DNA of 32,000 nucleotides from Candidatus Saccharimonadota bacterium (GTDB lineage: Bacteria; Patescibacteriota; Gracilibacteria; BD1-5; UBA6164), in contig OZ245768.1 in assembly GCA_965227835.1 (NCBI GenBank), positions 1,380,001 through 1,412,000 on the forward strand, written 5' to 3'. Below are positions 1,761-31,729 of this stretch, one piece after another. Position 1 is the stretch's first letter. Every line of letters begins with the position of its first letter. The translations under genes and the position numbers were made by a program. The notes beneath the pieces are model-generated. The model searched no databases. It was not told the DNA's origin and was given only the letters and a program-made list of their open reading frames with translations.

Positions 1761-3152
<1,392 letters not shown>

Positions 3153-3176
3153 AAATTTATTAAAAAATTTTAGAAT

Positions 3177-3608
3177 ATGGAACTACAAATACTTAGTTTT
3201 GATGGAAAAAAAATTGAAAATGACAATGTCTTGTCTATAACTTTGATGACTAAAACTTGAGAAATAACTGTCTTGGATAAGCATACTTCTTTGATTACTA
3301 GTGTAAAGCCTAGTACTATGTATTATGTTTATAGAGATGAAAACAACATGCAAAATAGAGATGATGTTGCAATATGAAATTGAGTTGTGGAAATAGCTGA
3401 TAGCAAGGTTAAGGTTATGGTTGATATGCTTGTTGATATTGAGGATTTGGACTTGGGACATCTAGAGAGAGCTAAAGTAGAAGCTCAAAAAAAGATGGAG
3501 GATTTAAGAGGTTCTAAGGATAAAATTGATATGGAACAGTTTATTGAAGCTGAAGATGCTTTACTTAAATCTATAGCTTCTTTGAAGTTGTATGATATGA
3601 AGAAGTAG
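3177..3608 (+). CDS. atpC: F1 ATP synthase epsilon subunit
   Basis: 143-aa product directly after atpD. The N-terminal beta-sandwich-like part (MELQILSFDGKKIEND…GEITVLDKHTSLITSVKPS) is followed by a C-terminal helical hairpin (LERAKVEAQKKMEDL…). Confidence 0.85.
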
Positions 3609-3711
3609 GGGTTTTACTCATTTGAGGTTTAATTGTAAAAAGTGTGTGGCTGGTTAAGTTAGTTTTCCCCATGTATGAGAGCTAAAATTAGTTTAATTTT
3701 TCTCTCTTTTT

Positions 3712-4686
3712 TTAATCCCTATAAAATATAGAACTAACATATAAATATCAAACCACAAAATATATAATAACTACAAAACTAAAATCTAGAGTTATAGCCA
3801 AATCAAATATAAAATGCAGAGACACCGTGAAAAATATTCATATTAAAAAGACTTTTAAATAGGGAAATATTTGAGGTCTTTTTTTGTATCACAAATAAGC
3901 CTTTGTAAAAAAGTATGCTATAATACTTGAACAAAATACATGTACCATTATAGAAAATACACTCCTAAAAAAATATATCTTTGTAAGTTCAAAGCTTATT
4001 CAAGAAGCATTATATAGACTATAAAAATACAAGATATTCTCTATAAAAGAAAATCATAGAGCTACAAATATGGCATAAAGCACTCAATCTTTTGTGCTTT
4101 TAATTTCTAAAATACCAGCTGAAATGAAGTTAAAATGTTTGGAAGATTCTTCTATAAAAGCCACTAAAACATAATAAAATATTATTAGCTTTAGAGTATT
4201 AAAAATAGTCTCTCAAAAATATATTTGGGAGAAACTAGAGATATTTTTGTTTAAAAAAACAAAATCTTTTGATATTAAATCCAAAGCATAAAAAAGAAGT
4301 GAAATTATACACACAAAAATTATAAAAATTAAGAAATTCCTAGAATAAAAAGCTAAAATTGACATCTTCTTTCTTAAAAATAGACTAAAAATAAAACTTA
4401 AAATTACAATTAAGCCTAAAAAAATACTCAAAGATAAACCAAAACTTAAAGTTCAAAAAAAACTTCAAATATCTTTTGCATACTGAAAGAAATTTATGCT
4501 TTCTATTTTTAAAAAACCTATTAATTCATCCATATAAAGTATAGGTACTACACTTAAAATACCAGAAACTATTCATAGAAAAAATCTATTTCTATTAAAC
4601 TTTTCTTCTGAAATACTTGAAAAAATATATGCCCAAAATAAAATAGGCATAAAACTTATGAAAGCTATTAAAACTATATTTAGCAT
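3712..4686 (-). CDS. PrsW-family intramembrane protease-like protein (polytopic membrane protein)
   Basis: Continuous 324-aa code-25 frame, checked codon by codon from 4215 down to the TAA at 3712-3714. It is multi-TM and carries AFIEESSKH, GFSFIENILY and a later H-rich helix (SIMVHVF…), the pattern typical of PrsW/CPBP-like proteases. Confidence 0.65.
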
Positions 4687-4830
4687 TATTATTTTAAGTT
4701 AAATAAATTCTCCTTAATACATTTTACTAGCTTTAATTCTAATATCAAAAAATATAGCAAAAAACATTATTTTAGAGTTTTTCCATATTTTTTTCAATTG
4801 TTCATATTTTAATTTTTACACATTTAAATT

Positions 4831-5478
4831 ATGCTAAAAAAAGATATAGATTTTTTCGCAAAGACACTCTATAATATGTACCCAAATGCAAAAACTGAAT
4901 TGGAATACTACAACAATTTTCAATTACTTATTGCTATAATTATGTCTGCTCAAACTACTGATAAGCAAGTTAATAAAGTCAATAAAACCTTTTTTAAAGA
5001 TCTAAAAGAACCTAAAGATGGTTTGAAGTTATGATTATTAGGATTAAAGAATCACATAAAAAGTATTTCTTTTTTTAACAACAAAGCAAACAATATATAC
5101 AAAACCTGTAAAATATTAGCTGAAAATAAAACTGATACAAAATTAGATAGCTTTGACACGATTGAAAAACTTTTAAAGCTACCTGGGGTTTGAATAAAAA
5201 CTGCCAAGGTATTTTTGGCAATAACCAAAGATTATCCTTATCTAGCAGTTGATACTCATGTTCACAGGGTATTAAATAGAGTTTGACTTGTAAATACAAA
5301 AACTCCCCTAGAAACTGATAAAAAGGCAGAAAAATTATTTAACAAACAAAATTTATGAAATATGCATCATGGGTTAATACTTTTTTGAAGGTATCACTGC
5401 ACTGCAACTAAAAAACCTAAATGTTACTCTTGTCCACTTTTAGAAAAATGCAGCTACAAAAACAAAAATTTAGTTTAA
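4831..5478 (+). CDS. nth: Endonuclease III (DNA glycosylase/AP lyase)
   Basis: SAQTTDKQVNKV…, helix-hairpin-helix LPGVGIKTAKVFL, VDTHVHRVLNRVG, and a C-terminal 4Fe-4S cluster motif CTATKKPKCYSCPLLEKC. In-frame TGA codons fall at Gly positions. Confidence 0.9.
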
Positions 5479-5513
5479 AAATACTTACAAAAACAACTAA
5501 ATTTCTCAGTTTT

Positions 5514-5858
5514 TTATTCATCTAATACATCTCTTCTCCTTACAAACTCATCATAATATACAGAATGTCTATCAATATATTCTTTTCACCAAGAACTTAT
5601 TAATGAATCTATTTTATCAGGTATTCTATTAATATTTTCGCTATCTTCCATGTCTATTATTAACTGTGATATATTCATATTATCTATAAAGAAACTTACT
5701 TGCATTTTTATCCGGAAATCTTTTTTGGTTATATATCTTGTGAAAAATCTATCATCACTTATTCAAATACAATATGAATCTATATAACTAAGGATCTTGT
5801 TTCCTATTTTATTAATTATAGAGTTTCTGTTTCAAACTATATAGCTAGTATTATCCAT
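5514..5858 (-). CDS. Hypothetical protein (114 aa)
   Basis: ATG at 5858 to TAA at 5514-5516, open with TGA=Gly (MDNTSYIVGNRNSIINKIG…VRRRDVLDE*). No motif recognised. Confidence 0.45.
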
Positions 5859-5888
5859 TTTTTATAGTATTAGTTATAATCTTTTCTT

Positions 5889-5988
5889 AAAAAGAGGGGT
5901 ATTTTAAACTCTCTTTATATATCGCTAAATACATATCTAAATTGAAAAAAACCAAAATAGAAGGAAGAGCTAAAATACCCCTCTTTTT
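5889..5988. repeat. Perfect 18-bp inverted repeat (AAAAAGAGGGGTATTTTA / TAAAATACCCCTCTTTTT) flanking a 64-bp spacer
   Basis: The arms at 5889-5906 and 5971-5988 are exact reverse complements. They are the only G/C-rich blocks in this AT-rich intergenic region. Confidence 0.7.
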
Positions 5989-6050
5989 AGTTTTTTCCAA
6001 TTAATGTATTTAGCTTTGTATAATTTAAGTAAAGACAAGAAAAAAGCAAT

Positions 6051-6085
6051 AAAAATTCGGTAGAAATTTTTTCTACCGAATTTTT
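6051..6085. terminator. Rho-independent-type hairpin (16-bp stem, 3-nt loop, A/T runs on both sides)
   Basis: AAAAATTCGGTAGAAA ttt TTTCTACCGAATTTTT. It lies 28 nt downstream of the stop of the minus-strand gene 6113-6391. Confidence 0.65.
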
Positions 6086-6112
6086 ATTATAAAATATTTT
6101 AAAAACACTATT

Positions 6113-6391
6113 TTAAGCTACTTTTTGCATTTCTTGTCTAATATCATCTAAACTCCTTCTAGAAGTTAGGATAGCTATTTTTCCTCTTATTTCTCAAATA
6201 GCTTCTGCTAAATTGGGAAAATCACAACAAAGATCAACAAGATGTTTATCCAGAGAAGCTAAATGTTTGTCCTCTACATTTTCTGGCTGTATATTTAATA
6301 TAGCTTCAACAGTAGGTGGCATTTTTCATAGAAAATCTAAATTTTCTTCACCTCCGTGGCTTCTGCAATTTATTCCAGATTCTTTTAGCAT
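6113..6391 (-). CDS. Hypothetical protein (92 aa)
   Basis: ATG at 6391 to TAA at 6113-6115 with two TGA=Gly codons (MLKESGINCRSHGGEENLDFLGKMPP…RQEMQKVA*). The plus-strand ORF 6213-6404 in the track is its antisense artefact. Confidence 0.5.
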
Positions 6392-6421
6392 TTTTATTTT
6401 TTAATTTTTATTTTTATCTCC

Positions 6422-6667
6422 CTATTTTTTATAAAGATTTCTTATATCTGAAAATACCTCTCCTATAAGTATTTTTCTTTCAATCTCTACTTGTTTATGC
6501 ATCAAACTTACATTAAAAACCAGAGTTTCGAAGTTATTTATTATGTTTTGCTTTTTTTTAGCTGGTAATAAATTAAAAATCTGATTTATTTCATACTTAT
6601 CACTATTACTAAGATTGGATTTTTCAAATAGTTCTTTTAGCTTTGTATTCATGATTACATTTAACAT
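6422..6667 (-). CDS. Hypothetical protein (81 aa)
   Basis: ORF from the supplied track, same strand as and just downstream of pilC. No motif recognised. An alternative start at the MNTKLKELF methionine is possible. Confidence 0.4.
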   Translation of the reverse strand: MLNVIMNTKLKELFEKSNLSNSDKYEINQIFNLLPAKKKQNIINNFETLVFNVSLMHKQVEIERKILIGEVFSDIRNLYKK

Positions 6668-6804
6668 AAATTATTATATCATATTTAATTATATAATCAC
6701 AAATTTTTTTATCAAATTTTTCAAACTTTAGATAGACAATTTTAATTTTTTAATTTAAGGAAAACCTTAAAAAAACCCATATTATGATTTTAAATTAATA
6801 TTTT

Positions 6805-7941
6805 TTATATAACATTAACCATATTAAAAAAAGGTAACATTATTGCCATTATCAAAGTTCAAATAATTATTCAAACTATCATTATTACAACAGGTTCTAT
6901 AACACTAGAAAGATTTTTTGTAATATTATCTATCTCTTTATTAAATTTTTTAGATATTTTTTCAAGCAATTCTGCAAGCCTTCAGGTTTGTTCTCAAATT
7001 TTTACCACACTAGAAAGTTCTACTGGAAAATAAAAATTTGATTTTCAGTTCTTTATTTCATTTATTCACATAAGACAGCTAAGATTTTCACCTTTTCTGA
7101 CACCTTTAATAATATCTTTTAATTTCTTCTCATAACAATCATTTTCCAAAGCCCTTGAGCTTATTTCTAATGCCTTGTTTATAATAACTCATCTAGATAA
7201 AAGTACTCAAAGAGAATTTGTAAAAAGAGCCAAAGTTTTCTTTTTTATAAGTCAACCAAAAACAGGAATATGTAAAATCATCGTATCCCAATATATTTTT
7301 GTGTATTTACTTGTTTTAAAAATTTTTATACAAGCTATAAGAACTATAAATCACAAAATAATTAAATTTATATTATTTTGTATAAATTCAGAAGCATATA
7401 TTACATTGTTGGTAAGATCTGGAAGATTAACTTTGGCATCCTTATACATTCATTTTATCTTTGGTATTACATATATCATAAAAATAAATATCATAGAAAC
7501 TGATAGAAATACTATCAACATAGGATATATAAGTGCTCAAAGTATTTTTCATTTTAACTCCTTTGTCTTTTCTTCTTTTTCCTTTATGGTATCAATAGAC
7601 TCTGATAAATTACCCGTTAATTCTCACATTTCAATAATAGAAATATCAAAAGAATTAAAGGTTCTTTCGTGTATAGAAAATATATATTTAAGATCTTTAC
7701 CTGTTTTTAGTTTTTGTAATGTATCTTCTATAATTATCTTTATTTTTTTGTTTTTGGATTGGTGTCTCATTATTGTAAATGAGTTTATTATAGGTATACC
7801 ACTTCAAAGCAAATTTGATAACTGTTCCAAGAAAAAGATTTTTTCTTTTACACTTAGTTTTACTCAATTGTTTTTAAATATTTTTTTTAAGTTTATTTCC
7901 ATATTTTTTCAAAAAGAAACCATTTCTTTATATTCTAGCAT
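6805..7941 (-). CDS. pilC: Type II secretion / type IV pilus platform protein (GspF/PilC family)
   Basis: 378-aa code-25 frame. It has two repeats of the T2SS-F domain (…LEQLSNLLGSGIPIINSF…FDISIIEMGELTGNL… and …FTNSLGVLLSRGVIINKALEI…FPVELSSVVKIGEQTGRLAELL…) and three TM segments ending …MLPFFNMVNVI*. The 256-aa plus-strand ORF 7175-7945 in the track is antisense to it. Confidence 0.85.
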
Positions 7942-9355: not shown

Positions 9356-10033
9356 ATGTCTGATAACTACTATGATATACTAGGTGTTTCAAAAGATTCA
9401 AGTAGCGAAGAAATAAAAAAAGCATATAGAAAAAAAGCTATGCAATATCATCCAGATAGAGCTAAATGAGACAAAAAACAAGCAGAAAAAAAATTTAAAG
9501 ATTTAGGTGAAGCATACGAAGTTTTGTCTGATGAAAAAAAAAGACAACAATATGATATGTTTTGATCATCTAGACAAAATCCTTTTTGATGATGAAACTC
9601 TTATAACTCTAGTTGAACATCTTGATTTGAAGATATTTTTTCTAGTATGTCTTGATCATGAGGTTCTTTTTCTTGAAAAACATGATGATTTGATTTTAAT
9701 TTGGAAGATTTATTTTGATGATGAAAAAATAGACAATATGAAGATAAAAGAGAACCTATAATTTTGGATTTTGAAAAAACTTATGAAATTCCTATTTTTG
9801 ATTTTATACTGTGAAAAAACTTAGAAGTAAAAGGAGTTTACTGACAAAAATCTATGATAAAAATACCTACTTGAACTAAGCCCTGAACAAAAATGAGAGT
9901 AAAGGGCCTATGAAAGAAACAAGGATGAGAAGTTTGAAATTTGATTATAAAACTTGAGGCTAAAATGCCCAAAAATATATCTGATATGGATAAAAATATG
10001 CTTGAAAGAATAAGTGAATCTATATGATATTAA
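9356..10033 (+). CDS. DnaJ/CbpA-like J-domain co-chaperone lacking the zinc-finger domain
   Basis: J domain [31 protein letters not shown]…[21 protein letters not shown]. It is followed by a G/F-rich linker in which runs of Gly are encoded tga tga tga (9587-9595 and 9716-9724). A single C-terminal beta domain follows (…[26 protein letters not shown]…). No CxxCxGxG repeats. Confidence 0.85.
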
Positions 10034-10050
10034 ATTGTTAATACAAAACT

Positions 10051-10083
10051 AAAAAATTAGCTTTTTAAAAAAGCTAATTTTTT
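10051..10083. terminator. Bidirectional hairpin terminator between convergent genes
   Basis: AAAAAATTAGCTTTTT/AAAAAGCTAATTTTTT palindrome between the dnaJ-like stop (10033) and the stop of the minus-strand gene at 10113. Confidence 0.6.
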
Positions 10084-10112
10084 GTTAAGGTTTAAATTTT
10101 TCGTTTCACTTT

Positions 10113-10433
10113 TTAACATGAACATCAACTACCACATCAACCTGGGGCACATCATCAAGAAGAGCTTCAACCTCAAATTATGCTTACAAGCATTGATTTT
10201 ATTTCCTCTTGACTAGGAGTTTGTCATTCAAATATCATATCTTTAAATTCTATAGATTCTTCTTCTATTATCAAAGCAGGTTCTGCTTTGATTCAAAATT
10301 CTTTTTTATAATCAGAACTTTCACTGTTTTCCAATTCTATAAAATCATTTAAACCAAGTTCTTCAAGGCATAAATTTAATATATTCATCAACTCCTTTGT
10401 ATTTTCTTTTTTTCAATAAACTATTATTTTCAT
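10113..10433 (-). CDS. Thioredoxin-fold-like small protein lacking CxxC, with a Gly/Ser/Cys-rich C-terminal tail
   Basis: 106 aa: MKIIVYGKKENTKELMNILNLCLEELGL…AEPALIIEEE…QTPSQEEIKSMLVSII. This resembles the small MTH895/redox-active-disulfide-protein-2 type fold but without the active-site cysteines. The tail is GGGSSSGGCAPGGCGSGCSC*, with most tail Gly encoded by TGA. Confidence 0.55.
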
Positions 10434-10492
10434 ATTTTTATATAATTATTAAAATTAAAATTTTGTAATTATTGAAGTATTTCAGGGTTTCC

Positions 10493-11110
10493 TTAACTTT
10501 CAGTTTCATCTCATTTGCTTTCTTTGTCTTCTTCAGCCTCTGTGCTGTCTTCTATTTTTTCTGTTCTAGGTTTACTAGCTATTGCTATAACCTCGTCTTT
10601 AGAATTTGTTATCTGAATATTATCAGGCACCTTTACATCAGAAACTTTTATATTATCCTCCACTTTTGCTAATATAGATAAGTCTACATCTATATGATCA
10701 ATCAAATCTTCAGGTAAACATGATATCTCTAATTCTTTTTGTAGTTCTTCAAGGATTGCTCAATCCCTTACAGCTTCAGATTCTCAAATGAAATTTAGGT
10801 GAACTTTTGTATTAAGTTTTTCTCCTTTTGTTAATGCAAAAAAGTCTACATGTGTAAAGTTTCAAGTAACCGGATCTTTTTGAAAATCATGAACCAAAAC
10901 CTCTATTTCTTTTTTCCCAAATTTTAAATTAATTATATTTGATTCTCAAGTTTTTCTAAAAAGTTTTAAAAATTCAGAATAATCAATTATCAAACTTACA
11001 GCTTCCTGTTTTTTACCATAAACTACTCAAGGAAGCTTCATTTGCTTTCTTAAATGTTTACAGTTCTCATCTTTTGCTCTTATTTGAGCTTCAATACTAA
11101 AACTTGTCAT
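10493..11110 (-). CDS. rplY: Ribosomal protein L25 / general stress protein Ctc
   Basis: MTSFSIEAQIRAKDENCKHLRKQMKLPGVVYGKKQEAVSLIID…VLVHDFQKDPVTGNFTHVDF… with an acidic C-terminal extension. The track ORF 10511-10705 is an internal piece. Confidence 0.85.
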
Positions 11111-11401
11111 AACATTTATTTAAAATAATAAAAATAACTCTTTTAACCAATTTGGTTTTAATTTGAAAGAGATTTTATATAAAATATTAAAATATGCAAA
11201 AGTTTTCATTTTTTGTGTATTTTAAAAGGTAATATTAAATATTTTTATATCTATTTATATAAAAAGTATATATTGTTTTTTGACTTTTCTCACAAAACTA
11301 TTAGCCTGCTGTAAACAATAACTTTCAAGAAAAAATTAAAAAATCATCTCCTACTGCAATTTTTTCTTTTCAAAATATATTTAATAATTTCCAAATATTT
11401 T

Positions 11402-12265
11402 ATGAAAACTTCTATTTCTCATATCCCACAAGAAAATCAATTAGAGCTTTTGAAAGTAGTTGATTTAATCAGATGAGAATCAAAAAATAAATTAAAAGTT
11501 GAAATGATTATACTTTTTTGATCTTATGCTAGAGGAGAACAAGTTGTAAAAGATGTAGTTATGGAATGAAACAATAAATTGGAATATAGAAGTGATTTTG
11601 ATATTTTGGTTGTTACTAGAAAACCTTCTCAAGAGAGAAACCTAACTCTTTCTTATGAAATATCTAAAAAAATAAACCAAAGCAAAGAAATAAATACCCC
11701 AGTTAGTATTTTAATAGAAGATATATATCACATAAATGATAGATTAGGTGAAAATAGATATTTTTACTTAGATATTAAAAAGGAATGAATAATTTTATAT
11801 GATTCTTGAAAATGTATTCTTTGAGAAGCTAGAATATTAAGTGAGCAAGAGAAAATTGATTTACAAAAAGATGACTTTAATATGTGGTTTTTTTGATGAA
11901 AAAATTTTTTTAAATATTCAATAGATGCAATGGAGAAATGAAATTTAAATGATTCAGCTTTTTTACTCCATCAATCTGCAGAAAGGTATATATCAGCATT
12001 TTTACTAGTTTCAAATTGATATAAATCAAAAACACATGACCTACAAGTTTTATACAATAATATGATAAAACTTGATAAAGAATTTGAAACCTGGTTTGAT
12101 TTAGAAAATGAAAATAAATATTTTGTACTTTTGAAAAAAGCTTATGTAGATGCAAGATATTCCAAAAGTTATCAGATAAATAAGCAAGAAATCAAATATC
12201 TACATAAAAAAGTAGAGGTATTGGAAAGACTTGTTGAACAAAAATGCCTAAAAATTATCAATTAA
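11402..12265 (+). CDS. Fused minimal nucleotidyltransferase (MNT) plus HEPN domain protein
   Basis: N-terminal pol-beta-type NTase motif …ILFGSYARGEQ…SDFDILVV. The C-terminal helical HEPN-like domain has …FLLHQSAERYISAFLL… and …KKAYVDARYSKSY…. Track ORFs 11579-11788 and 12062-12265 are in the same frame. Confidence 0.75.
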
Positions 12266-12274
12266 CAAAAAATT

Positions 12275-12904
12275 ATGAAACCTAGAGAAAAACTTTTAAA
12301 ATATTGAGAGAAAAAATTGGAATGATGGGAATTAGTTGCTATTATATTATGATCTTGAATTAAATGACAAGATATATTCAAACTATCTAAGAAAACTTAC
12401 AAAATAATAAAAGAAAAAAGTGAAAATCTAAAAATGGAAAATCTTTTGGCAATAAAATGAATATGAAAAGTGAAGGCAATACAAATAATTTGAGCTTTTG
12501 AACTAGTAAATAGACATATTAACAAAGATTTTTTTTACATAAACTCTAGCAATGACATAATAGAATGTGTAAAAGATTACAGGGATAGAAAACAAGAATA
12601 TTTGCTCTGCATAACACTTGATTGAGCTAATAGATTTATAAAAAAAAGAATCATAACTATAGGTTTACTAAATGAAAGTTTGATACATCCAAGAGAGATA
12701 TTTTCTAGTGCTATAGAAGATAGAGCTAATAGCATAGTGGTTGTCCATAATCATCCTTCTTGAATGGCTGAACCATCAAAAGCTGATATAAATTCCACTA
12801 TAAGACTAAAAGAGGTTTCAAACACTATATGAATAAAACTATTAGATCATATAATAATAACAAAAAATAATTATTTTAGTTTTGCAGAAAATAACTTATT
12901 ATAA
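12275..12904 (+). CDS. radC: RadC-like JAB-domain protein
   Basis: N-terminal HhH-like region (…[21 protein letters not shown]…) and JAMM motif …[25 protein letters not shown]…. Confidence 0.85.
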
Positions 12905-12932
12905 TCCAATTTAATTTTTAAAAATATTTCTT

Positions 12933-13499
12933 ATGGAAAACATATCATCAAAAGAAGAAATAATGTCTTTGGTAGACAAATACTCTAATTCTACAAAACA
13001 GCATTTATTACAAGTTTGAACTATAATGCAATATTTCGCAGAAAAAATATGAGAAGACCCATTATACTGGTGGACAGTTTGAGTGTTACATGATATAGAT
13101 CGGGATTATGTAGAAAAAGATTCAAGCAGACACTTAAAAGATGATTTTGAAAAAATAATCTCTGAGATTAGTGTTTCTGAAAATATTATATGAGACATAA
13201 GATCACATGGTTATTTTTTGGATTGAATACAAGAAAATCCTGATAATTTAGTTAGAAAATATCTCTGTAGTATTGATGAGCTATCTTGATTTATTTGGGC
13301 ATATTTTCGTATGATACCAAGTGAAGATGTAATGGATATAAAATCAAAATCTATAAAAAAGAAACTTAAAGACAAGAGTTTTGCTGCTTGAGTTGACAGA
13401 GAAGAGGCAAGACAATGTGAAAAATTACTTGAAATATCAATTGATGAATTTATAGAAGACATAAAACTCGCTTTGAAAGATTGAAACTGGACTAAATAA
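12933..13499 (+). CDS. HD-domain hydrolase family protein
   Basis: …HLLQVGTIMQYFAEKIG…WWTVGVLHDIDRDY… (H…HD signature); 188 aa with TGA=Gly. Confidence 0.65.
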
Positions 13500-22116: not shown

Positions 22117-22192
22117 GCACGAGTAGCTCAGTTGGAAGAGCAGCGCCCTTCTAAGGCGAAGGTCACAGGTTCGAGCCCTGTCTCGTGTACCA
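22117..22192 (+). tRNA. tRNA-Arg (anticodon TCT), CCA encoded
   Basis: GCACGAGTAGCTCAGTTGGAAGAGC…CTTCTAA…GGTTCGAGCCCTGTCTCGTGTACCA. Confidence 0.9.
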
Positions 22193-22229
22193 TTTTAATT
22201 TGATAGTCTTATTTATTGATACTATATTT

Positions 22230-22306
22230 GGGTGATTAGCTCAGTTGGCGAGAGCATCTGCCTTACAAGCAGGGGGTCATAGGTTCGAATCCTATATCAC
22301 CCACCA
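22230..22306 (+). tRNA. tRNA-Val (anticodon TAC), CCA encoded
   Basis: GGGTGATTAGCTCAGTTGGCGAGAGC…CTTACAA…GGTTCGAATCCTATATCACCCACCA. Confidence 0.9.
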
Positions 22307-22447: not shown

Positions 22448-23630
22448 CCTGAATTAAACCCCGAAGTGCAATTTTTTAAATGAACTTAAAGAAGAAAATA
22501 TAGCATTAAGAAATTTTTTATTTTTGAGATTATAAAAAATTTTGTTATAATTCCAAATACAACATTAAGATTGTGAAAAGTGTGCTTGATTAGGGGAAAT
22601 AAATCAAAGTATTTCTCTAGGAGTATTTGCTAATATATCGCAAATACTTTTTATTTTTTCATCACTTACATAATCAAATATAGTTCATTTAGGAAAAAAT
22701 CTCCTGATAATCCTATTTAAATTCTCAACACTTCACTTCTGCCAAGAAGAATAAGGTTCACAAAAGTAAGTATCTATTCATATATCATTTAATAAATAAT
22801 GCTTAGCAAATTCCATTCAATTATCAAAAGTAACAGATTTAATTCATATATCATCTTTAACTCAAGCTATTAGATTAATTATATTTTCACTTGATTTATC
22901 TTTTATTTTAAAAATTTTAGGTAACCTAGTCTTTCTATCAACCAATGTAAGTATAGCTCATTTAAATCATTTTTTAGAAACAATTAAATCAGCTTCAATA
23001 TGTCATTTTTCTTCTCTGTTATTTATTGTTTCAGGTCTATTTTTAATACTAACTCTATTTTTAATTTTCACTCTTTCTGTTTGTTGTTTTTTCTTTCTAT
23101 AACCTTTATGTTTATATAATAATAGTTCTTTATATTTATTTCACATACCAGTTTCTAGCCAAGAATATATACTTGTATGGGAGATATGTTTCTTTTTATC
23201 TGTTTGAGTATTATTCCGTTTCTTAGCAATTGTTTTTGGGGACATTTGTATTTCTGTTATTGATAGTTGTTCTATTATGAAATTTTTCATATTAGTATTC
23301 ATATTTATCTTCATTGATTGAGTTTTTGTTAACCATCGTCTTTGATATGATTTGATTTCTGCTTCTAGTGCTAAATATACTTTTTTATTGTTTCATCGTT
23401 TTTTTACTGAATTTCTGTATATCTCTCTGCTTATTGTTGATTCTGATCTTTTTAGTATTGATGCTATATCTTTTTTCTTTAATCATTTATTTAAATGAAA
23501 TTCAATACTTTCTCTCTCTTGGAATATTAATTGTCAGTACATATCTTATTATATTAGAAAATAATGTTATTACCCTACGGGGAATACTATATTTTCTTCT
23601 CTTTTAATTGCACTTCATTTCTTACTTTGG
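22448..23630 (-). mobile_element. Intact IS30-family insertion sequence (about 1.18 kb)
   Basis: Single transposase ORF. Imperfect terminal inverted repeats share GAAGTGCAATT…AGAAGAAAATATAG (left 22463 onward; right, reverse complement, 23616 downward). GCCT occurs immediately outside both proposed ends (22444-22447 and 23631-23634), a possible target-site duplication. Boundaries are good to a few bp. Confidence 0.8.
22565..23542 (-). CDS. IS30-family DDE transposase (325 aa)
   Basis: Code-25 frame MYGQLIFQERESIEFHLNKGLKKKDIASILKRSESTISREIYRN… (HTH). Catalytic region …EEKGHIEADLIVSKKGFKGAILTLVDRKTR…SVTFDNGMEFAKH…FCEPYSSWQKGSVENLNRIIRRFFPKGT…LANTPREILGFISPNQ. It contains many in-frame TGA codons and is invisible in the standard-code track. 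Confidence 0.9.
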
Positions 23631-23675
23631 GCCTTTTTGAATACTATCAAATCGAATAAATCATGATAAATATAA

Positions 23676-25514
23676 ATGGCAATTTGAGAAATAAACATCA
23701 AGTGAGTAGTAAGTGATATCAAGAATACATCTGTGTATTATTCTGTTTTTGAATGAATTGTAAATGGTATTCATGCTTTTGAAAAATCATCAAAAGATAA
23801 ATGAAAAATTGATATTCAAGTTATTAGGAGTAATCAAACTAGATTATGAACATCAGAAGATGATTGACTAGAGGATATAGAATCTTTCATTATTTCCGAT
23901 AATTGAGTTTGATTCAATAGTGAAAACCAGAAATCTTTTCGAACATTTAAAAGTGACTATAAACTAGAAAGTCATTGAGGTAAATGATTTTGACGTTTTT
24001 TTTATCTAAAATTCTTTGAAAAAGTTAGTTTCGAAAGTGTTTATGAAGATGAATGAGAAAAAAAGAGAATCACTTTTTCTTTTGATATTAATGCAAATGA
24101 CATGATGTCTAATCCTGTCATCTCTGTAGTTGATAAAAATACTGAAACAGGCACAAAACTAAAATTACAAAGTTTAAAAAAGAAATATAGCACAAAACTT
24201 AATTCCCAAAGTAAGAAGATTCCAACTTTATGAAGAAAACTATTAGAACATTTATTAATGTACTTTGTAAATGACGATTTTAATTGTCCAGATATTGATA
24301 TTTTTGATTCTCATGATAGAGAGAATTTGAATAATATGATAGGAGAAAAAAAGGATATAAGTGTTATACACAATAATAAAATCTTCTTGAAGAAAAATGA
24401 AAAAAAAACCGAGGAAACAGAATTTTGATTTAAAATTTTTAAAGTGAAGTATTCAGTTGAGAGTAACACTATAAGCTTATGTGCACATAATAGAGTAGTA
24501 ATAGACGAAAATTTAGGTAAGTTCCTACCTGATTTTAACCAAAAATTAAAAGAAGTTTCAAATAAAAAAGAAAATAATTACGCAATTAAATGTTATATAT
24601 ACGGAAACTACCTTGATAATAATGTTGATACTGAGAGAGAAAGTTTCAACTTTATTAAGGATGATGAAATATTTGAGGGTGTAATTCTAGATAGAGATAT
24701 TTTCAATGCTGCTACGAAAGAAATAAAGAATTTATATCAGAACTTCTTAAAGTGTCAAAAAGAAATCAAAATAAATAATGTAAAGAGCTTTATAAACAAT
24801 AAAGCTCCTTGGTATAGTAGTTTATTTAAAAGCTTTGATTTTAATACTATTGATTCAAGCATATCTGAAGATATGTTGGATTCAAAATTTCATGAATTAA
24901 AATATACAAAAGAAAAGGAAACGAAACTAAAAACTAATACATTTGTAAAGAGTAGTGATTTCTCAAATAAAGATGAGATCAGAGATTTGGTATTATCTTT
25001 AGACGACCTTGTAAAAACTGATTTAGCTCATTATGTGGCAACAAGAAAATTTACACTTGATTTACTTGATAAATCTCTTGAATGGGATGAAAATACAAAG
25101 AAATATAAATCAGAAGATAGTCTACATACTATCATATTTCCAACTAAGAATGATACAGATACAGTAGATTACAAGGATCATAATATGTGGGTACTTGATG
25201 AAAAGTTAGCATTTTCTGACTATATATCATCTGATATTCCCTTAAATTCATGAAAATCCGAAAGAGGAGACGTGATTATTTTTGATAAAAAGATAGCTTT
25301 TCGATGAGAGAATAATAGTTCAAATCCTATTACTATATTTGAATTTAAAAAACCTTGAAGGGAAGATTTTGTAAATCCATCCTCACATGAAGACCCTATT
25401 CAGCAAATAATTAGGTATGCAAATAACATTGTTGATTGAAAATACAAAACTCCAAAGTGAAAAAATATTCAAGTTGCTGAAAATACACCCTTTTATTTCA
25501 ACACATCGGGATAA
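23676..25514 (+). pseudogene. 5' part (about 607 native codons) of a GHKL/Bergerat-fold ATPase with a C-terminal PD-(D/E)xK-like module, truncated by an IS200-type insertion
   Basis: Frame walked codon by codon from ATG 23676. N-box-like FEGIVNGIHA; G1 box ISDNGVGF (23898-23915 encodes DNGVGF); G2 box HGGKGFGRF (23976-23996 region). A long helical middle follows (the track ORF 24444-25253 is an internal piece). Then …HTIIFP…ERGDVIIFD…ITIFEFKKPGRED…QQIIRYANN…TPFY. The frame then runs into IS sequence and stops at TAA 25512-25514. Confidence 0.75.
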
Positions 25515-26189
25515 AAACCCCTATCTTTAGATAGTTAAGACACCGAAGGTGTAAGTGATAGAAATTGAATAAATGAGATGTGTTGTGACATAGGGTTTTA
25601 AACCCCGTTGCCTTCAGGCCGATTCTAAAGAAAAAAGTGTAAAAAATCAATAGAATAAATAAAATAGTGTTAAAAACTAACACTAGAGAGAATGAAATAC
25701 CAAAAAAGTAGTCATGCGACATATGATGTCAGATACCATATAGTATGGATAACAAAATACAGAAATCCATTCATGACAAAAGAGATACAAGATAGATTGG
25801 AAAAGATCATAAGATGAATAAGTAAAAAGCTATGAGTAATAATAATAAAGATATGAATGGAAGAAGATCATGTACATATGTATTGTAGGATACCGTTAAC
25901 TAAACCAATATCTACAATAGTATGACATATAAAGTGAGAAAGTTCTAAGGCAATAAAGAGGTATTTTTACAAAGAAATTAAGAGATGGTATTGGAAGACA
26001 TGAAATATATGGTGAGTATGATATTTTGTATCTAGTGTATGAGAGATAAATTGAGAAATAATATCTAATTATGTGGAACAACAGTGAGAAGAAGAGAATA
26101 AGATTGAAGAGATAGAGCTTTAAATTTCAGTACAAATAAAAGCCCCGTGCCTTCAGGCCGGGGTAGAAGAAAAGCTAAAACTTTTTTAC
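25497..26189 (+). mobile_element. IS200-type (IS200/IS605 family, tnpA only) insertion sequence, about 0.69 kb
   Basis: A Y1 transposase gene is flanked by subterminal hairpin-forming sequences: CCCCGTTGCCTTCAGGCCG at about 25604-25622 and CCCCGTGCCTTCAGGCCGGGG at about 26143-26163. Removing 25497-26189 rejoins the host reading frame (…PFY|GYVVC…). Ends uncertain by about 10 bp. Confidence 0.8.
25692..26123 (+). CDS. tnpA: IS200/IS605-family Y1 (HUH) transposase TnpA (143 aa)
   Basis: MKYQKSSHATYDVRYHIVWITKYRNPFMT…EEDHVHMYCRIP…GHIKGESSKAIK…WGVGYFVSSVGEINGEIISNYVEQQ: the HUH motif (HVHM) and the C-terminal Tyr-containing helix. At least ten in-frame TGA=Gly codons. Confidence 0.9.
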
Positions 26190-26393
26190 TGATATGTTGT
26201 TTGTACTCTAACAGAAAAGGTAAAAAGTTGGCTAAAAAGAGAGAAAAACTTTAAAGTTATGCCTGATGGTCAATGATATTTTGATTGGTATGATAATAAT
26301 AATCTATATATAGAAGTGCTTGATTGGGATAAGGTAGTGAATGATTCAAGGATGAGAAATAAAATATTTTTTGATAAACTTAAGGTCGAATAA
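26190..26393 (+). pseudogene. 3' remnant (67 codons) of the IS-split GHKL ATPase/nuclease-like gene
   Basis: GYVVCTLTEKVKSWLKREKNFKVMPDGQGYFDWYDNNNLYIEVLDWDKVVNDSRMRNKIFFDKLKVE*. It is in the same frame phase as the 5' part once the IS is removed. Confidence 0.7.
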
Positions 26394-26436
26394 TAAAAAT
26401 GAATAAAAAATCTAAATTTATCGTTCAGTCTTGATT

Positions 26437-27057
26437 TTAACCAATTTCCTTAAAATAAAGCTTTTTTTCCAATATATACTCAACTATTTCTGGAATAAGA
26501 AATCTATTTAGTGCTTTTTGTAGATCTAGCTTATTTTTTCTTATCTCTTCTCTAACCATAGATGAAGAAATATCATTTTCACTTACCTGTTCTACCAGAT
26601 TAAAATTTTCTATATCTCTTGTATTAATAACATATCAAGGTCTTTCTATAATTATTTTTTTTAAAAACCTTTCTATATAAGAGTCTTTATTTCAAGACCA
26701 ATATTTTATGTCTGGTATTACATCAATTCAAAATATATGATAGGGAGAGTGTCCAAGTTTATCTTTGAAATATTCATCCACATTTACAGTATTTGTGTAT
26801 CAATTATTTTTTCATTCTAAAAAATGTGTATCTAGCTCTACATTTAGTCATTCATTTTTTAGATTTTCAAAAAATAATTCTATTAGCTTTAATTTATCAT
26901 TATCATTTATTCAATAGTTTTTATCTAACCTTTTTCAATCAGGTGTTAGTATTATTTTATCTATACAAGAATTATTTAATACTTTTTTTATTATGCTTTT
27001 ATGTCATAGATGAGGAGGGTTAAAAGCTCATCAGTATATTGCTATATTTGTTTTCAT
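26437..27057 (-). CDS. nadD: Nicotinate-nucleotide adenylyltransferase
   Basis: MKTNIAIYGGAFNPPHLGHKSII… ((H/T)xGH motif) and a C-terminal …ISSSMVREEI… (ISST-like motif); 206 aa. Confidence 0.88.
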
Positions 27058-27063
27058 ATTTTT

Positions 27064-27897
27064 TTATTTGGTTTTAAATCCTTGTTCTTCTAGTTCTCTG
27101 CTACTCCATATATTTAAATAACTTGTTGGTATTAAGAAAGTTATTTTCTCTTCATAACTTTTTACCTCTACACTAAATTCTTCTCACTTTGGAATATCTT
27201 CTATTTTTTCTCAATCACAATTTATTTGCATAGGATTAAGCCTTCAAACATTTTTTACTTCTATTAAATTATGACTAGGTACAAGAATTGACGTACTAGG
27301 ACAGTTGGAAGGTGCTTTTGGAGTTATTCCAATTAAATCAGTATTATGACGGATTATGGTTCATCCTAAGCTTTTATTGTATGCAGTAGATCATATTCAA
27401 GAGTATATAATAGCTCAGTCTCATCTTAATGATTTATTAAACTTTAAAGGTGAAATGAAACTTTGTGAGTCTAAATTTCTTAAATATTCGGTAACTTCTA
27501 TTAAAATGTCTACAGGTCTTCAACTATTTGCTCTTATATCTACTTCATTTACAGCTATAGTTTCTTTGGATCCACTTTTTGTATTTACAAAGATTTTTAA
27601 TATTTGTAACTTTTTTTCTACATATAGGCTTCAATCATTCACATATTCCTTTTCATTTAGTAAATATCATTTATTTCAAAAGTTTATTCACAAAAAAGGT
27701 AAACTCCTGCTATGATTTTCTTTTATTGCTCTTATCATTGTACCATCTCATCATAAAACTATAACTACATCTTTTTTTATAGAATCAATTATAGTTGCTA
27801 TATTTGCAGGTTCTAAAAAACTTCTTAATTCATTGTTTTTCTCAAAAGAATAATCATCGTAACATACAATGCTATTTCATATTTTCCTAGTTTCCAT
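27064..27897 (-). CDS. nadK: NAD+ kinase
   Basis: …VVIVLGGDGTMIRAIK… (GGDGT), …GINFGNKGYL…, …NEVDI…, …GDGAIIYSGIGSTAYNKSLGGTII…; 277 aa. Confidence 0.88.
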
Positions 27898-27925
27898 AAT
27901 TAAACAGATTAAATATAAACTTTAT

Positions 27926-28846
27926 TTACTCATATAATATAATATTTCTTATTAGATCTGACATTTCTAAAACTTTCATATTTGGTGTATTTTTAGCTCT
28001 TTCTATATTTGTTGGTATTGAGTCAGAGACAATTAACTCATCTACTTCTTGTGCCACTTTTTTATGAGAGTTTTCAGGGAATACTCAGTGAGGAATATAT
28101 ACTCTTACACTTTTTGCTCACTTTTCTCTTAGTTTATTAACTGCCTCTATTACTGTTCATCCTGTTTGAATTAGGTCGTCTATTATTAGAATATCTTTTC
28201 ATTCAGGATTTCACTCTTTTATCCATATCTTTCTTTTATCTCACTCTAATCTTCTTTTTTCACAAACTATTTTTTCAAAATCTTTAAATTGAGGATTAAA
28301 TCTCTTATATGCTCATTCATCTGGAAAAGCTATTTGTACATTTTCTTCAATTTCTTCTTTGATCAAATGCATAGTAGTGTGAAGTTCTGGATTTATTCTG
28401 TCTAAGTTGAAATAATTTCTTGTTCATAAATCGTGTATATCAAAAATATGTATAGAATTTTTTTTATCTCTTCCTGGTGGTATACTAGAAATTAAATCTG
28501 CAAAAATTTTAGCAGTTATTACTCTTCATCTTACATCTTCTTTTTCCATTGTTCAACAAGGAAAAAATGGCATTATTATACGAAGTTTATCAGCATTATT
28601 TGATACTATAGTTGATAATATAGATAAATGATCAAACATAGTTTTCCTTTCAGAAAAATCTCATATATATGTTACATCTTTGTGTTCTATATATTTTTCT
28701 GTTTCTTCTAACAAAAAATTAGGCCACTTATCTTTGAATAGATCCTTTTGGACTTTTCATATGTTTATACCTCTCTCTTTTCAAAAACATTTTGGTAATT
28801 CTTTAGAAATATGAGAAAATTTCTCATCTATTATAACTGTTTTCAT
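27926..28846 (-). CDS. prs: Ribose-phosphate diphosphokinase (PRPP synthetase) family protein
   Basis: …LRIIMPFFPCGTMEKED…, …IHIFDIHDLGTRNYF…, …IAFPDEGAYKRF…, and the PRPP loop …DILIIDDLIQTGGTVIEA…; 306 aa. Divergent N-terminus. Confidence 0.75.
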
Positions 28847-28854
28847 ATATTTTT

Positions 28855-30630
28855 TTATTGTTTTAAAATTAAATTTTTTAGTTTTTTATATTTTTCTCAA
28901 AAATAAACTGGGTTTTGGGCTTCTCTATATTCAAATCAAAAACTTGATTTACTTATAGTGAGTATTGGTGGAGACTGGACCCTTTTAAAATAGTTTATAT
29001 TTAATAGATTCCATATTTTTTCAATTTCTTCTATAAATTTATTTTCATTTTCAAAGTAACTGGATATTTCTTGGGGTATTCATAAAAATTCTTTTAGTTC
29101 TCATTTTAGATACATATCAAGTATATCTGCTGGTTCTTTTTTCTTTTCTATGAGTGCTTGGTTAAGTTTTGATGTAAATTCATAGTTGAATGGATCTCAA
29201 TTTCAAGATTCTACATCTTGTTTATCACTTAGTTCCGCACTTGGGACTATATCTATTATACCTTGTGGTATAAGTTCTCCATATTTTTTATTTATGTATT
29301 TTGAAAGTTCATATACTTGTGTTTTATATAAATCTCAAAGTACGCAGAATGCTCATGCTACATCTCAATATAGTGTTGCATATCATAGAGCTATTTCATC
29401 TTTATTTCCATTGTTTGTAAAAACGGCTCATATATTACTTGCCATATCTGCTAGTATTTGTCACCTTTCTCTGGCTTGTATATTTTCTATTTCAAAATCT
29501 GTGGGTGCTTTTCAGCTTGTTTGTGTTATTTGTTTTATTTTTAGATCTATTGATTCTTGTATTGGAAATATCTTATATTCTACTCAGAGTTTTTGGGCAC
29601 ATTCTTGAGCTAGGTTTTTTGTGGTTTTTGAATTAAACTTAGAGGGCATATTTATGGTAAAAACATTTTTGCTTCATAGTGCAATGGTACATAGTGCGGC
29701 ACTTAATGCACTGTCTATTCAACCACTTAGTCATATAACAACTTTTTCTTGAGATATATTTTTCATATACTCTCTTATGTAGTATATACTTGTTTCAAGT
29801 ATTTGCTCTAGCTCGTTTTTTTCTTCATCAATTGTGGCATTTTCTTCTTTTGTATAGTCCTTTATTCATTGCAGTTTTTTTCAGTTTTCATATATACTAC
29901 TTCCTCATTCAAATATAAATACATTTTTTCAGTTATTTTGTTGTCATATAGGATTTACATAGGCTAGCTTGCCTTTTCTGCTAGCTTTTTTTAATATCCT
30001 ATTTCTCATGTCAAATTTATTTAATCCAAATGGTGATGCTGATGGTACAGCTATTAAATCTGGGCTATGTTTTCTTGTTAGTTTTACAGGGTCTATATTG
30101 TAATCTCCATTTATATTCCATATATCTTCGCATATAAGTACAGACACTTTTGTTATAACTCAGTTTATTTCTATTTCTATTGGTTTGTAATACTGTTCTA
30201 GTGGTTTTTGTTCTTCTTTTGCCAAGGTTTGAAGAGAAGTAAAATATCTTTTGTCATCAAACATACGATAGTTTGGTAAAAGTGTTTTGTGTACTTTTCC
30301 TAGTAGTTTTCAGTTTTGGCTTATAAATGCTGTGTTGTATTTTCTTATACTCCCATCTTCATTTTTCTTTCTTTCGTCAATATCTATATTTCCCCATATT
30401 CAGGCTATCCCATTTTCATCTAATATTTGTATTATTCTCTGGTTTATCTCTCTGCACTCTTTTACAAAACTATCCCTTAACCATCTATCTCAGATCATAT
30501 ATCAGGGTATACACATTTCTGGTAGGATTAAAAGTCATCATTTTGGAGTTTTTTTTGCCATTTCTTCAACTCATTTTAGATTTCTTTCGGGATCTCATGC
30601 ATATACCTGCATTTGTCATAATTTTATCAT
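28855..30630 (-). CDS. nadE: Glutamine-dependent NAD+ synthetase (CN-hydrolase plus synthetase domains)
   Basis: N-terminal nitrilase-type domain (MIKLGQMQVYAGDPERNL…LPEMCIPGY…VLICEDIWN…). C-terminal N-type ATP-PPase domain (…VVIGLSGGIDSALSA…NKDEIALGYATLYGDVAG…VPSAEL…). The track ORF 29944-30147 is an internal piece, and the plus-strand ORFs 29186-29636 are antisense artefacts. Confidence 0.92.
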
Positions 30631-31709
30631 AGTCTTTGTATTATTATATTTTTAAAATCATTTGCCACTGTTTCTATTTCTTCAAAGTTTTCTAAGTTTT
30701 CTATGTAGTATCTTTCTGGCATTTCTCAACTTAAAGCTCAAACCATATTTCATACTATTGATCAATAGCTATCAGTATCTCATCATATGCTTACTGAATC
30801 TATTATTGCTTGAAAACTTTGTTCTCTTAAAAATATACAGTAGGTTATTGCCAGTGTTGTAGCTATTTGTCCGGATTTTTTTATATCGTCTCCCCATCAA
30901 AAATTTTCTAATATTTCATCATCACTTATTATAAGTTTTCATTTTTTTGAAAATTCTTTCATTTTCTCAAATATTTGTCTAATTTTTGCAAGTTCTTGTC
31001 ATTCCAAAGTGTCTTTTTCTGGAGCTGATTTTTTATCTGTCAATTCTTCGTAAGTTCTTATTTTTCTAGTCATATATTCTAAAAATTCTCACACATTTAT
31101 ATTTCAATTGCTATTTAGAATATATCTAAAACCTATATCATGTATAATGCTTGCCAGTTTTTGAGGGTAGCTGTTGTGTGTTAATCTGGTAAAATCAATG
31201 ATTTCTCTATTTGGTGCCTCCCAAAGTGTAAGAGGTGCTTGTTTCATCATAATTCCACATCACATAGAACTACTTTCTATACTTAATAGTTTGTTTATGT
31301 CTTTGTATTCTCTAAAGTGTTTTATAGCTTTTCTCGTAGCTCCTCAAAATCCATATGGAAATTTGTCATAACCTTGCATTGTTTTTTCCATAATATCATA
31401 TAAATCTATTGTCTTTTTTTCTGTAATGGATTTCATAACTGCCATAGTAAGAATTGTATCGTCTGATATTTTTCATACTTCTTTTGATGATAATTCTAAT
31501 CCAGCTTTTATGAAGTAAGTATTCCATCATGAAGGCAGGTAAAAATCTATTTTTGAAGAGCTTTTATGCAGAATGTCTTGTATTTCTTGTTTTGTTTTCG
31601 TTTCTACTGGTAATCATAGTGCATCTCATACTGCTCAGTTTATAAGTATTGCCGGTATTTTTTCTGCTTTTTTTAACTCAAAGTTTTTACTTCCTATTTT
31701 ATCTTTCAT
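30624..31709 (-). CDS. ADP-ribosylglycohydrolase (ARH/DraG) family protein
   Basis: …AILINGAVGDALGLPVE… near the N-terminus and …SVSIGGDTDSYGSIVGNMVGALSG… near the C-terminus, the two metal-binding signature regions of the family. 361 aa. It ends cta tga taa, overlapping the nadE ATG. Confidence 0.8.
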
Positions 31710-31729
31710 TTGATTTGGTGTTTAATGAT

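Follow-up and report, generated by a model that had tools for sequence, protein, structure and literature searches.

Positions 23676-26393 of the analysed stretch of DNA, hereafter the window (32,000 nucleotides of contig OZ245768.1 from assembly GCA_965227835.1, a Candidatus Saccharimonadota bacterium placed among the Gracilibacteria), hold a gene that is split by an insertion sequence (IS) of the IS200 type and preceded by a second element of the IS30 type. When the split is repaired and the genetic code of the genome is taken into account, the gene encodes a protein of 674 amino acids (aa) with a GHKL ATPase at its N-terminus and a PD-(D/E)xK nuclease at its C-terminus, and the locus very probably represents a recently inactivated member of the paraMORC3/VcSduA family (Shedu type I-D), that is, a one-protein anti-phage nuclease. 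The parts of the gene and of the element inside it are listed below, each with the evidence used for it; domain limits are approximate.

23676..25496, + strand: 5' part of the disrupted gene, codons 1-607 (code-25 translation, alignment, structure model, VcSduA residue map)
23676-24275, + strand: GHKL ATPase, residues 1-200 (invariant columns, model, Foldseek)
24276-24680, + strand: beta-rich transducer/S5-like domain, residues 201-335 (model, Foldseek)
24681-25070, + strand: long helical arm, residues 336-465 (model)
25071-25496, + strand: first three-quarters of the PD-(D/E)xK nuclease, residues 466-607 (E480, H484, D532, E556-x-K558, Q577-xxx-Y581)
25497..26189, + strand: IS200-type element of 693 bp with tnpA only and no tnpB, inserted seamlessly 3' of TTTAT (empty-site comparison, Y1_Tnp match, repeats and hairpins)
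25692..26123, + strand: tnpA, an intact Y1 (HUH) transposase of 143 aa (Pfam PF01797 Y1_Tnp, E=3e-33, 115 bits, profile positions 2-121 of 121)
26142..26163, + strand: GC-rich subterminal hairpin GCCCCGTGCCTTCAGGCCGGGG at the right end of the element (direct repeat, DNA fold)
26190..26393, + strand: 3' part of the disrupted gene, codons 608-674 and TAA (translation, alignment, model)

Translation of the region with table 11 yields only a string of short open reading frames (ORFs); with table 25, positions 23676..25514 form one open frame of 612 aa, and once 25497-26189 is removed the reading frame extends over 2025 nt, giving 674 aa followed by a TAA at 26391-26393. The disrupted gene contains 21 TGA codons, and in 53 homologues from standard-code genomes glycine makes up 56% of the residues at the corresponding alignment columns, against a background of 5%, with tryptophan not among the six commonest residues there. 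Five of these columns, which are glycines of the G1 and G2 boxes of the ATPase, carry glycine in 53 of the 53 standard-code homologues. On this sequence comparison the genome therefore uses code 25 (TGA=Gly) and not code 4 (TGA=Trp), the latter having been rejected because of the glycine enrichment and the absence of tryptophan from the commonest residues at the TGA columns.

The excision junction holds at the protein level, since 100% of the reconstituted protein is covered by full-length homologues: in a search that gave 127 matches, homologues of 658-681 aa span 97-100% of it, the best intact ones (673-681 aa) reach a coverage of 99-100%, and the consensus NTPFYGYVVC runs uninterrupted over the junction in an alignment of 64 family sequences (hereafter the family alignment). 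At the DNA level, three intact orthologues (loci L021, L005 and L004) have an empty site in which CC(T/A)TTTTAT is followed directly by TGAT(A/T)TGT, and the flanks of the element in the window, CCCTTTTAT joined to TGATATGT, agree with this site, nothing being duplicated or lost. As TTTTA is common to the left flank and the right end of the element, the junction may slide by up to 5 nt, which leaves the protein unchanged. The expectation of the preliminary description, made from the letters of the window, that deleting 25497-26189 would restore a protein of about 674 aa is thus borne out by the open frame, the homologue coverage and the empty site alike.

An exhaustive profile search returned 4,418 cluster representatives at E<=0.001 (1,771 at E<=1e-30), and the best 150 profile matches are nearly all single, end-to-end matches of about 650-700 aa, so that the family is large and architecturally uniform, with proteins of about 665 aa. 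Twenty-five columns are invariant in the family alignment. Those of the Bergerat fold include E26, N30, D75, K96 and R107 together with glycines of the G1 and G2 boxes, and the GHKL boxes as a whole, namely E26/N30 (N-box), D75-x-G77-x-G79 (G1) and G101...G104-x-G106-R107 (G2), are invariant or nearly so; the ATP-binding motifs picked out in the preliminary description (an N-box, DNGVGF and GGKGFGRF) fall on these columns. In the C-terminal domain a RecB-like nuclease set is found, with E480, H484, D532 and E556-x-K558 invariant and Q577-xxx-Y581 present in at least 90% of the sequences; K103, T604 and P605 are likewise invariant or near-invariant. Pfam HATPase_c matches 55 of the 64 family members (best E=5.5e-8) and the window protein at 19 bits, under the Pfam cut-off, and a few of the 64 members have weak matches to PDDEXK_9 or HSDR_N.

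P0003, the closest long orthologue that is intact, was modelled with AlphaFold; the model has a predicted local distance difference test score (pLDDT) of 84.5 and a predicted template modelling score (pTM) of 0.75. The database sequence of this orthologue was translated with TGA=Trp and its ATP-binding glycines were consequently modelled as tryptophans; the fold assignment should nevertheless stand. Four parts can be made out in the model: the GHKL domain, a beta-rich transducer (approximately residues 207-330), about 130 residues of long helices and a C-terminal domain with the order alpha-beta-beta-beta-alpha-beta. The long helical middle predicted in the preliminary description is therefore present, and the beta-rich, S5-like transducer that lies between it and the ATPase had been overlooked. 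With the N-terminal two-thirds of the model, Foldseek retrieved Hsp90/GRP94/TRAP1, SMCHD1, MORC2/3/4, MutL/PMS2 and Topo VI-B over 390-450 columns (E=1e-9 to 1e-5), and the full-length fold search retrieved the GHKL module only.

Modelled alone, the C-terminal domain has a pLDDT of 78 and is weak near the D-strand (residues 53-74 of the domain model are below 50). The Foldseek neighbours of this isolated model are all below significance, and those with meaning are nearly all PD-(D/E)xK nucleases, including McrC (E=0.019), FokI, BstEII, CdiA-CT, MUS81 and SfsA; the catalytic residues fall in the expected secondary-structure elements. The C-terminus with the spacing of a restriction endonuclease that had been proposed earlier is upheld by the conserved E-D-ExK-QxxxY columns and by the order of helices and strands; the nuclease assignment is made at the level of the motif, with suggestive support from the modelled fold. 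Searches of PDB sequences with the protein and with the family profile gave nothing relevant, and a profile search with the C-terminal domain, aimed at other N-terminal partners or DUF4263-annotated relatives, recovered only fragments of the same family.

The function proposed for this protein comes from VcSduA of the Vibrio cholerae WASA lineage (VSP-II; A1552VC_00276, 673 aa), which has an N-terminal GHKL ATPase and a C-terminal PD-(D/E)xK nuclease and which, expressed alone, shields Escherichia coli from T1-like phages (PMC12137116). Protection by VcSduA is lost in the E27A (ATPase) and K557A (nuclease) mutants and is seen at all multiplicities of infection, pointing to direct restriction rather than abortive infection; for the protein an entwined dimer is predicted, its middle domain resembling a clamp, and tetramer modelling was poorly supported (PMC12137116). 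According to the same authors, VcSduA-like proteins were earlier annotated as paraMORC3 (PMC12137116), a group defined in 2008 by a GHKL ATPase, an S5 domain and a RecB-like E-D-ExK nuclease, sporadically distributed and found in restriction-modification (R-M) operons or standalone (PMC2292703). Proteins bearing a GHKL domain have also been placed in Shedu class 1D, or type I-D (10.1101/2023.08.10.552793).

By BLASTP the window protein matches a full-length, 90% identical twin of VcSduA (P0242) with E=2e-90, residues 7-673 against 6-670, and a global alignment with VcSduA itself (P0241) has 636 aligned positions with 35% identity. In this alignment E26 corresponds to E27 of VcSduA, N30 to N31, D75 to D76, D532 to D527, E556 to E555, K558 to K557 and Q577/Y581 to Q575/Y579; E26 and K558, the counterparts of the two residues mutated in VcSduA, are invariant in the family alignment. 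Another homologue, P0030 (42% identity to the window protein, E=5e-151), is Pseudomonas sp. LTJR-52 EAW52_RS00525, match #144 in the table of VcSduA homologues published by these authors, to which it is tied by the same record (CP033105.1) and an identical displayed N-terminal sequence. From this listing it is likely that the authors' MacSyFinder hidden Markov model of VcSduA would recognise the window protein as well. Membership of the VcSduA/paraMORC3 family is established at the sequence level, and the full-length homology to a validated anti-phage protein speaks for the single-gene defence candidate, GHKL ATPase plus nuclease, that the preliminary description had put forward. The architecture, which that description did not recognise as a named defence system, is already on record as paraMORC3 (PMC2292703) and as Shedu type I-D/VcSduA (10.1101/2023.08.10.552793, PMC12137116): it has been described and experimentally validated elsewhere, and the window copy is an inactivated further member, from a recoded lineage that has been little sampled.

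As to the state of the gene, the IS200-type element enters after Tyr607, within the fourth core beta-strand of the nuclease (strand E605-610 in the P0003 model), and detaches 67 C-terminal residues, among them the invariant F668 and L671 and the near-invariant D633, K655, D659 and R663. The detached 3' part encodes most of that strand (GYVVC), a helix, a beta-hairpin and the long C-terminal helix, and the blocks of the P0003 model over residues 601-660 have pLDDT values of 83-95. The remaining product of 612 aa is expected, on the model, to have a misfolded nuclease domain. With its fourth core strand interrupted and 67 conserved residues cut off, the gene has most likely lost its activity in the genome of the window. 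This agrees with the preliminary description, which had located the insertion between the EFK motif and the last conserved strands and had regarded the gene as most likely dead; the cut does fall after the ExK motif and before the last core strand. The insertion must be recent, because all 25 family-invariant residues are retained across the disrupted gene, no other lesion is present, tnpA is intact and the empty site is exact. Elements of the IS200/IS605 family excise precisely, and by analogy reversion through precise excision would be possible in principle.

The element itself shows traits typical of the IS200 group, with a seamless insertion 3' of a TTAT-like site, subterminal hairpins and no inverted repeats. 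Its transposase carries the HVH motif in '...EEDHVHMY...' and the C-terminal tyrosine in '...ISNYVEQQ', and Rfam at permissive thresholds found nothing inside the element. The hairpin GCCCCGTGCCTTCAGGCCGGGG lies 26 nt from the right end and has a degenerate direct copy near the left end (25600-25634); it consists of a 9-bp stem with a bulged T and a TTCA loop, is GC-rich within a genome of 25% GC and occurs once in the window, where none would be expected by chance. The exact 22-mer was also observed in 10 genomes (loci L011-L020) with otherwise unrelated flanks, from Verrucomicrobia, cyanobacteria, Chloroflexia, Chlorobiota, Balneolales, Paceibacterota, Ktedonobacterales and Ferruginibacter. 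Four of these loci, from 3 genomes, have HEARO/IscB RNA or an IS200-like tnpA nearby: the 22-mer is about 1.3-1.5 kb from HEARO (the IscB omega-RNA) in L013, L017 and L018 and close to an IS200-like tnpA in L014. The 22-mer looks like an end structure common to the IS200/IS605 superfamily.

The surroundings of the gene in the window are made up of the following features.

22117..22306, + strand: tRNA-Arg(TCT) and tRNA-Val(TAC), closing the rrn operon and forming the left border of the inserted block (ARAGORN, Rfam)
22463..23616, - strand: IS30-type element, about 1.15 kb (HTH_38 and rve matches, inverted repeats)
26437-31721, - strand: compact cluster related to nicotinamide adenine dinucleotide (NAD), directly downstream of the gene

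A complete rrn operon and the two tRNA genes precede the IS30-type element, whose transposase ORF (325 aa, 22565-23542, minus strand) matches HTH_38 (E=7e-9) and rve (E=2e-5; 25 bits, under the Pfam cut-off of 32.6). Its terminal inverted repeats lie at approximately 22463-22507 and 23583-23616; one pair, I3 (22490-22507/23583-23600), is 94% complementary, and the repeat is extended by GAAGTGCAATT at 22463-22473/23606-23616. No target-site duplication of this element was identified. These matches, together with the Y1_Tnp match and the seamless junction of the IS200-type element, confirm the two elements, one in the gene and one before it, as they had been proposed. The IS30-type element stops about 60 nt upstream of the ATG of the gene (gap 23617-23675) and may have displaced or replaced the native promoter; a promoter scan of 23500-26500 gave 25 matches against 19.7 +/- 4.6 in shuffled sequence, which is no excess. 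The NAD-related cluster consists of genes for a NadD-like protein of the cytidylyltransferase fold, an NAD kinase, a phosphoribosyl pyrophosphate synthetase, a glutamine-dependent NadE (CN_hydrolase plus NAD_synthase) and an ADP-ribosylglycohydrolase, and was treated as housekeeping. About 11 kb upstream of the gene, at 11315-12265 (+ strand), a 287-aa protein was observed in which a minimal nucleotidyltransferase (Polbeta/NTP_transf_2) is fused to HEPN (E=8e-15), a toxin-antitoxin-like module of the MNT-HEPN kind in a single polypeptide.

The neighbourhoods of intact homologues were sampled in ten settings, given below by protein and locus with coordinates of the locus.

P0006, L004 (recoded genome): HsdR ... 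gene-HsdS-Fic-HsdM; gene at 10001-12034, hsdS from 12046, pair spanning 10001-13239
P0005, L022 (recoded genome): HsdM-BroN-gene-HsdS-Zeta-HsdR; gene at 3775-5814, hsdS from 5814, pair spanning 3775-6896
P0008, L025 (recoded genome): HsdR-gene-HsdS-HsdM, tightly packed; gene at 2547-4583, hsdS from 4584, pair spanning 2547-5798
P0028, L010 (standard code): HsdM-HsdS-gene-SMODS-SLATT-HsdR; gene 24 nt after hsdS
P0036, L006 (Gracilimonas): gene between pglX and pglZ of a complete type 1 bacteriophage exclusion (BREX) operon
P0003, L005: beside a type IIG enzyme, a HATPase_c_4 protein and a MORC-like ATPase
P0032, L007-L009: beside an AAA_15/AAA_21 pair
P0007, L024: HsdS/HsdM 6-8 kb away, integrase fragment upstream
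P0030, L001: among metabolic genes
P0039, L002: among metabolic genes

In the three orthologues from recoded genomes that head this list, the gene immediately precedes hsdS, overlapping it by 1 nt in one locus and lying 0-11 nt away from it in the other two, an adjacency that suggests co-transcription with type I R-M and, judged from gene order, perhaps functional coupling. Members of the family were also found on 58 plasmids, half of which are conjugative, and bear no annotation there other than 'ATP-binding protein'. Intact copies often lie in R-M, BREX or other defence clusters; orthologues consistently embedded in housekeeping operons, which would have refuted the preliminary description, were not seen. 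Its placing of the window copy in a mobile-element site after an rrn/tRNA locus is correct; its further suggestion of a defence island holds for the family and finds no support in the window, where no other defence gene neighbours the locus. A 440-aa protein that has no Pfam match follows the gene in L006 (12013-13335), between pglX and pglZ, and is not found in the other neighbourhoods; this protein and a 666-aa neighbour in L005 were considered as paralogue or conserved partner and rejected; the 440-aa protein has no similarity to the window protein. Phage vB_RanS_PJN03 (ON245412.1, 40034-42043) was further observed to encode a homologue along the full length of the protein (27% identity, 99% coverage, E=3e-48), under a feature labelled 'N-acetylmuramoyl-L-alanine amidase'; either the label is wrong or the phage carries a copy of the defence gene.

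Homology, residue conservation, domain folds and the defence-type contexts of the orthologues were computed here; for the intact protein we infer a dimeric DNA clamp with a licensing step and a trigger. Two copies would dimerise through their N-terminal GHKL domains on ATP binding, the transducer domains and long helical arms would close as a clamp around DNA, and ATP binding and hydrolysis would license the paired C-terminal nucleases (PD-(D/E)xK, RecB-like E-D-ExK-QxxxY) to cut invading DNA, so that the phage would be restricted directly and the host cell not killed.

Several observations weigh against reading the locus as an inactivated one-protein defence system of the Shedu type. Anti-phage activity has been demonstrated solely in a gammaproteobacterial homologue of 35% identity and would extend to the window protein by analogy; no other defence gene adjoins the locus in the window; the loss of function is deduced from structure; and the isolated C-terminal model has no structural match at E<=0.001. 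The Pfam profile PF14082 (DUF4263) has no match at E<=1 in the window protein, the 64 members or VcSduA, and none at E<=10 in the isolated C-terminal domain of the window protein. PADLOC v2 matches neither the window protein nor VcSduA, NCBIfam has no match for the window protein at E<=1, a search of PDB sequences with the family profile recovers no Shedu chain at E<=10, and Foldseek with the isolated C-terminal model, weak at the D-strand, finds no Shedu among the top 50. The 'Shedu' label of the family thus rests on the cited papers, the relationship to DUF4263 not being reproduced here; the Shedu/MORC-like character suggested in the preliminary description holds, given the kinship with VcSduA. 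VcSduA itself lacks DUF4263 and PADLOC matches (UniRef names it 'DUF4263 domain-containing protein' despite the missing PF14082 match), and the missing matches are therefore a property of the libraries, not a departure from VcSduA.

Gene order bears most directly on a different explanation, in which the protein serves type I R-M or BREX as an accessory subunit, an ATP-driven nuclease or remodeller, and relies on the methylation-based self/non-self cue of its partner, the window copy being an orphan without that partner. The gene abuts hsdS in L004, L022 and L025 and is packed as hsdR-gene-hsdS-hsdM in the last of these; it follows hsdS in L010, lies between pglX and pglZ in L006, and an R-M role of paraMORCs was predicted from gene neighbourhoods by Iyer et al. 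(PMC2292703). We nevertheless consider this explanation unlikely, as VcSduA protects E. coli by itself (PMC12137116), several homologues and the window copy have no R-M neighbour, and gaps in type I R-M and BREX operons host unrelated passengers, here Fic, Zeta toxin, SMODS/SLATT and Bro-N, while a standalone subset with a C-terminal nuclease was noted by Iyer et al. themselves (PMC2292703). A narrower form of the idea arises because the gene-hsdS arrangement is conserved in three orthologues: in TGA=Gly lineages of the Gracilibacteria/Absconditabacteria type, the clade, instead of being an independent Shedu, would form an integral fourth part of type I R-M operons, its clamp and nuclease coupled to the methylation read-out of HsdMS, and the window copy would already have been an orphan before its knock-out. 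This too we hold to be improbable, to about the same degree.

That the interrupted gene still matters, either because the 612-aa product keeps its function or because the element acts as a reversible switch, seems considerably less probable: E26, N30, D75, E480, D532, E556 and K558 are all upstream of the insertion, tnpA is intact and exact excision from the seamless site would restore the wild-type sequence, but most of a central beta-strand and the 67-residue sub-domain, with the invariant F668 and L671 and the high model confidence given above, are removed, and elements of the IS200 group have very low transposition rates. No allele of this genome free of the element was seen, an exact-match search with the product retrieving no contig. 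Least credible of all, and next to negligible, is a housekeeping role for the GHKL protein, whether in repair like MutL, as a chaperone like Hsp90 or as a kinase. Hsp90-family chaperones and MutL/PMS2 head the full-length structural matches, and two homologues (P0030, P0039) lie among metabolic genes; however, neither the window protein nor the 64 members match MutL_C, HSP90 or HisKA in Pfam, there is no Morc6_S5 match, and NCBIfam gives none. The family is sporadic across phyla and found on conjugative plasmids, its nuclease motifs are conserved, a homologue has validated anti-phage activity (PMC12137116), and the IS disruption is tolerated in a reduced genome with a contig of 1.49 Mb. MutL, Hsp90 or kinase identity was accordingly rejected, only the generic HATPase_c and HATPase_c_3 being matched in Pfam; a conventional MutL, Hsp90 or histidine kinase would have refuted the preliminary description.

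With this inactivated paraMORC3/VcSduA-type nuclease, the known range of a single-protein defence family that was validated only recently takes in a code-25 lineage with reduced genomes, and the locus is a clean natural example of recent defence-gene loss through IS200 insertion; the picture of how such systems work is unchanged by it. Copies of this kind are overlooked by standard pipelines, both because reading TGA as tryptophan turns glycines of the ATP boxes, several of them TGA-encoded, into tryptophan, and because Pfam DUF4263, PADLOC v2 and NCBIfam do not recognise the members or VcSduA. Of P0001-P0010, the database copies of the window gene and its orthologues from recoded genomes, P0001-P0003 are translated with TGA=Trp in the public protein collection (e.g., DNWVWF for DNGVGF), and to judge by the alignment columns the others up to P0010 probably are too; a precomputed Pfam HATPase_c match is present in none of P0001-P0011 and in many standard-code homologues. 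Mistranslation of code-25 genomes probably hides the paraMORC3/VcSduA family, and other families, from routine annotation. The repeated lodging of the gene between hsd genes and in BREX provides a lead on cooperation of GHKL nucleases with methylation-based systems.

Compared with known systems, the window protein is most fully like VcSduA, with 674 against 673 aa, the same domain order, an end-to-end alignment and the GHKL and E-D-ExK-QxxxY residues kept. It differs in being 50-76% identical to proteins of recoded genomes and just 31-35% identical to the Vibrio clade, in its 21 TGA=Gly codons and IS interruption, and in setting, VcSduA sitting beside GrwAB in VSP-II, whereas relatives in the clade of the window protein are mostly inside type I R-M operons. 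With paraMORC3, compared by its published description, it shares a GHKL domain with intact ATP motifs, the S5/transducer domain, the RecB-like E-D-ExK nuclease, a sporadic spread over phyla and the occurrence of copies both in R-M contexts and on their own. The likeness to canonical Shedu (SduA of B. cereus) consists in single-protein defence by a C-terminal PD-(D/E)xK nuclease under a variable N-terminal module; canonical SduA is a homotetramer (10.1101/2023.08.10.552793), whereas VcSduA is predicted to be a dimer of the GHKL type (PMC12137116). The ATPase and transducer superpose on those of MORC, MutL, Hsp90 and Topo VI-B, and an ATP-driven dimerising clamp would be the expected mode of action; the window protein has a fused PD-(D/E)xK nuclease in place of the C-terminal endonuclease of MutL or the C-domain of Hsp90.

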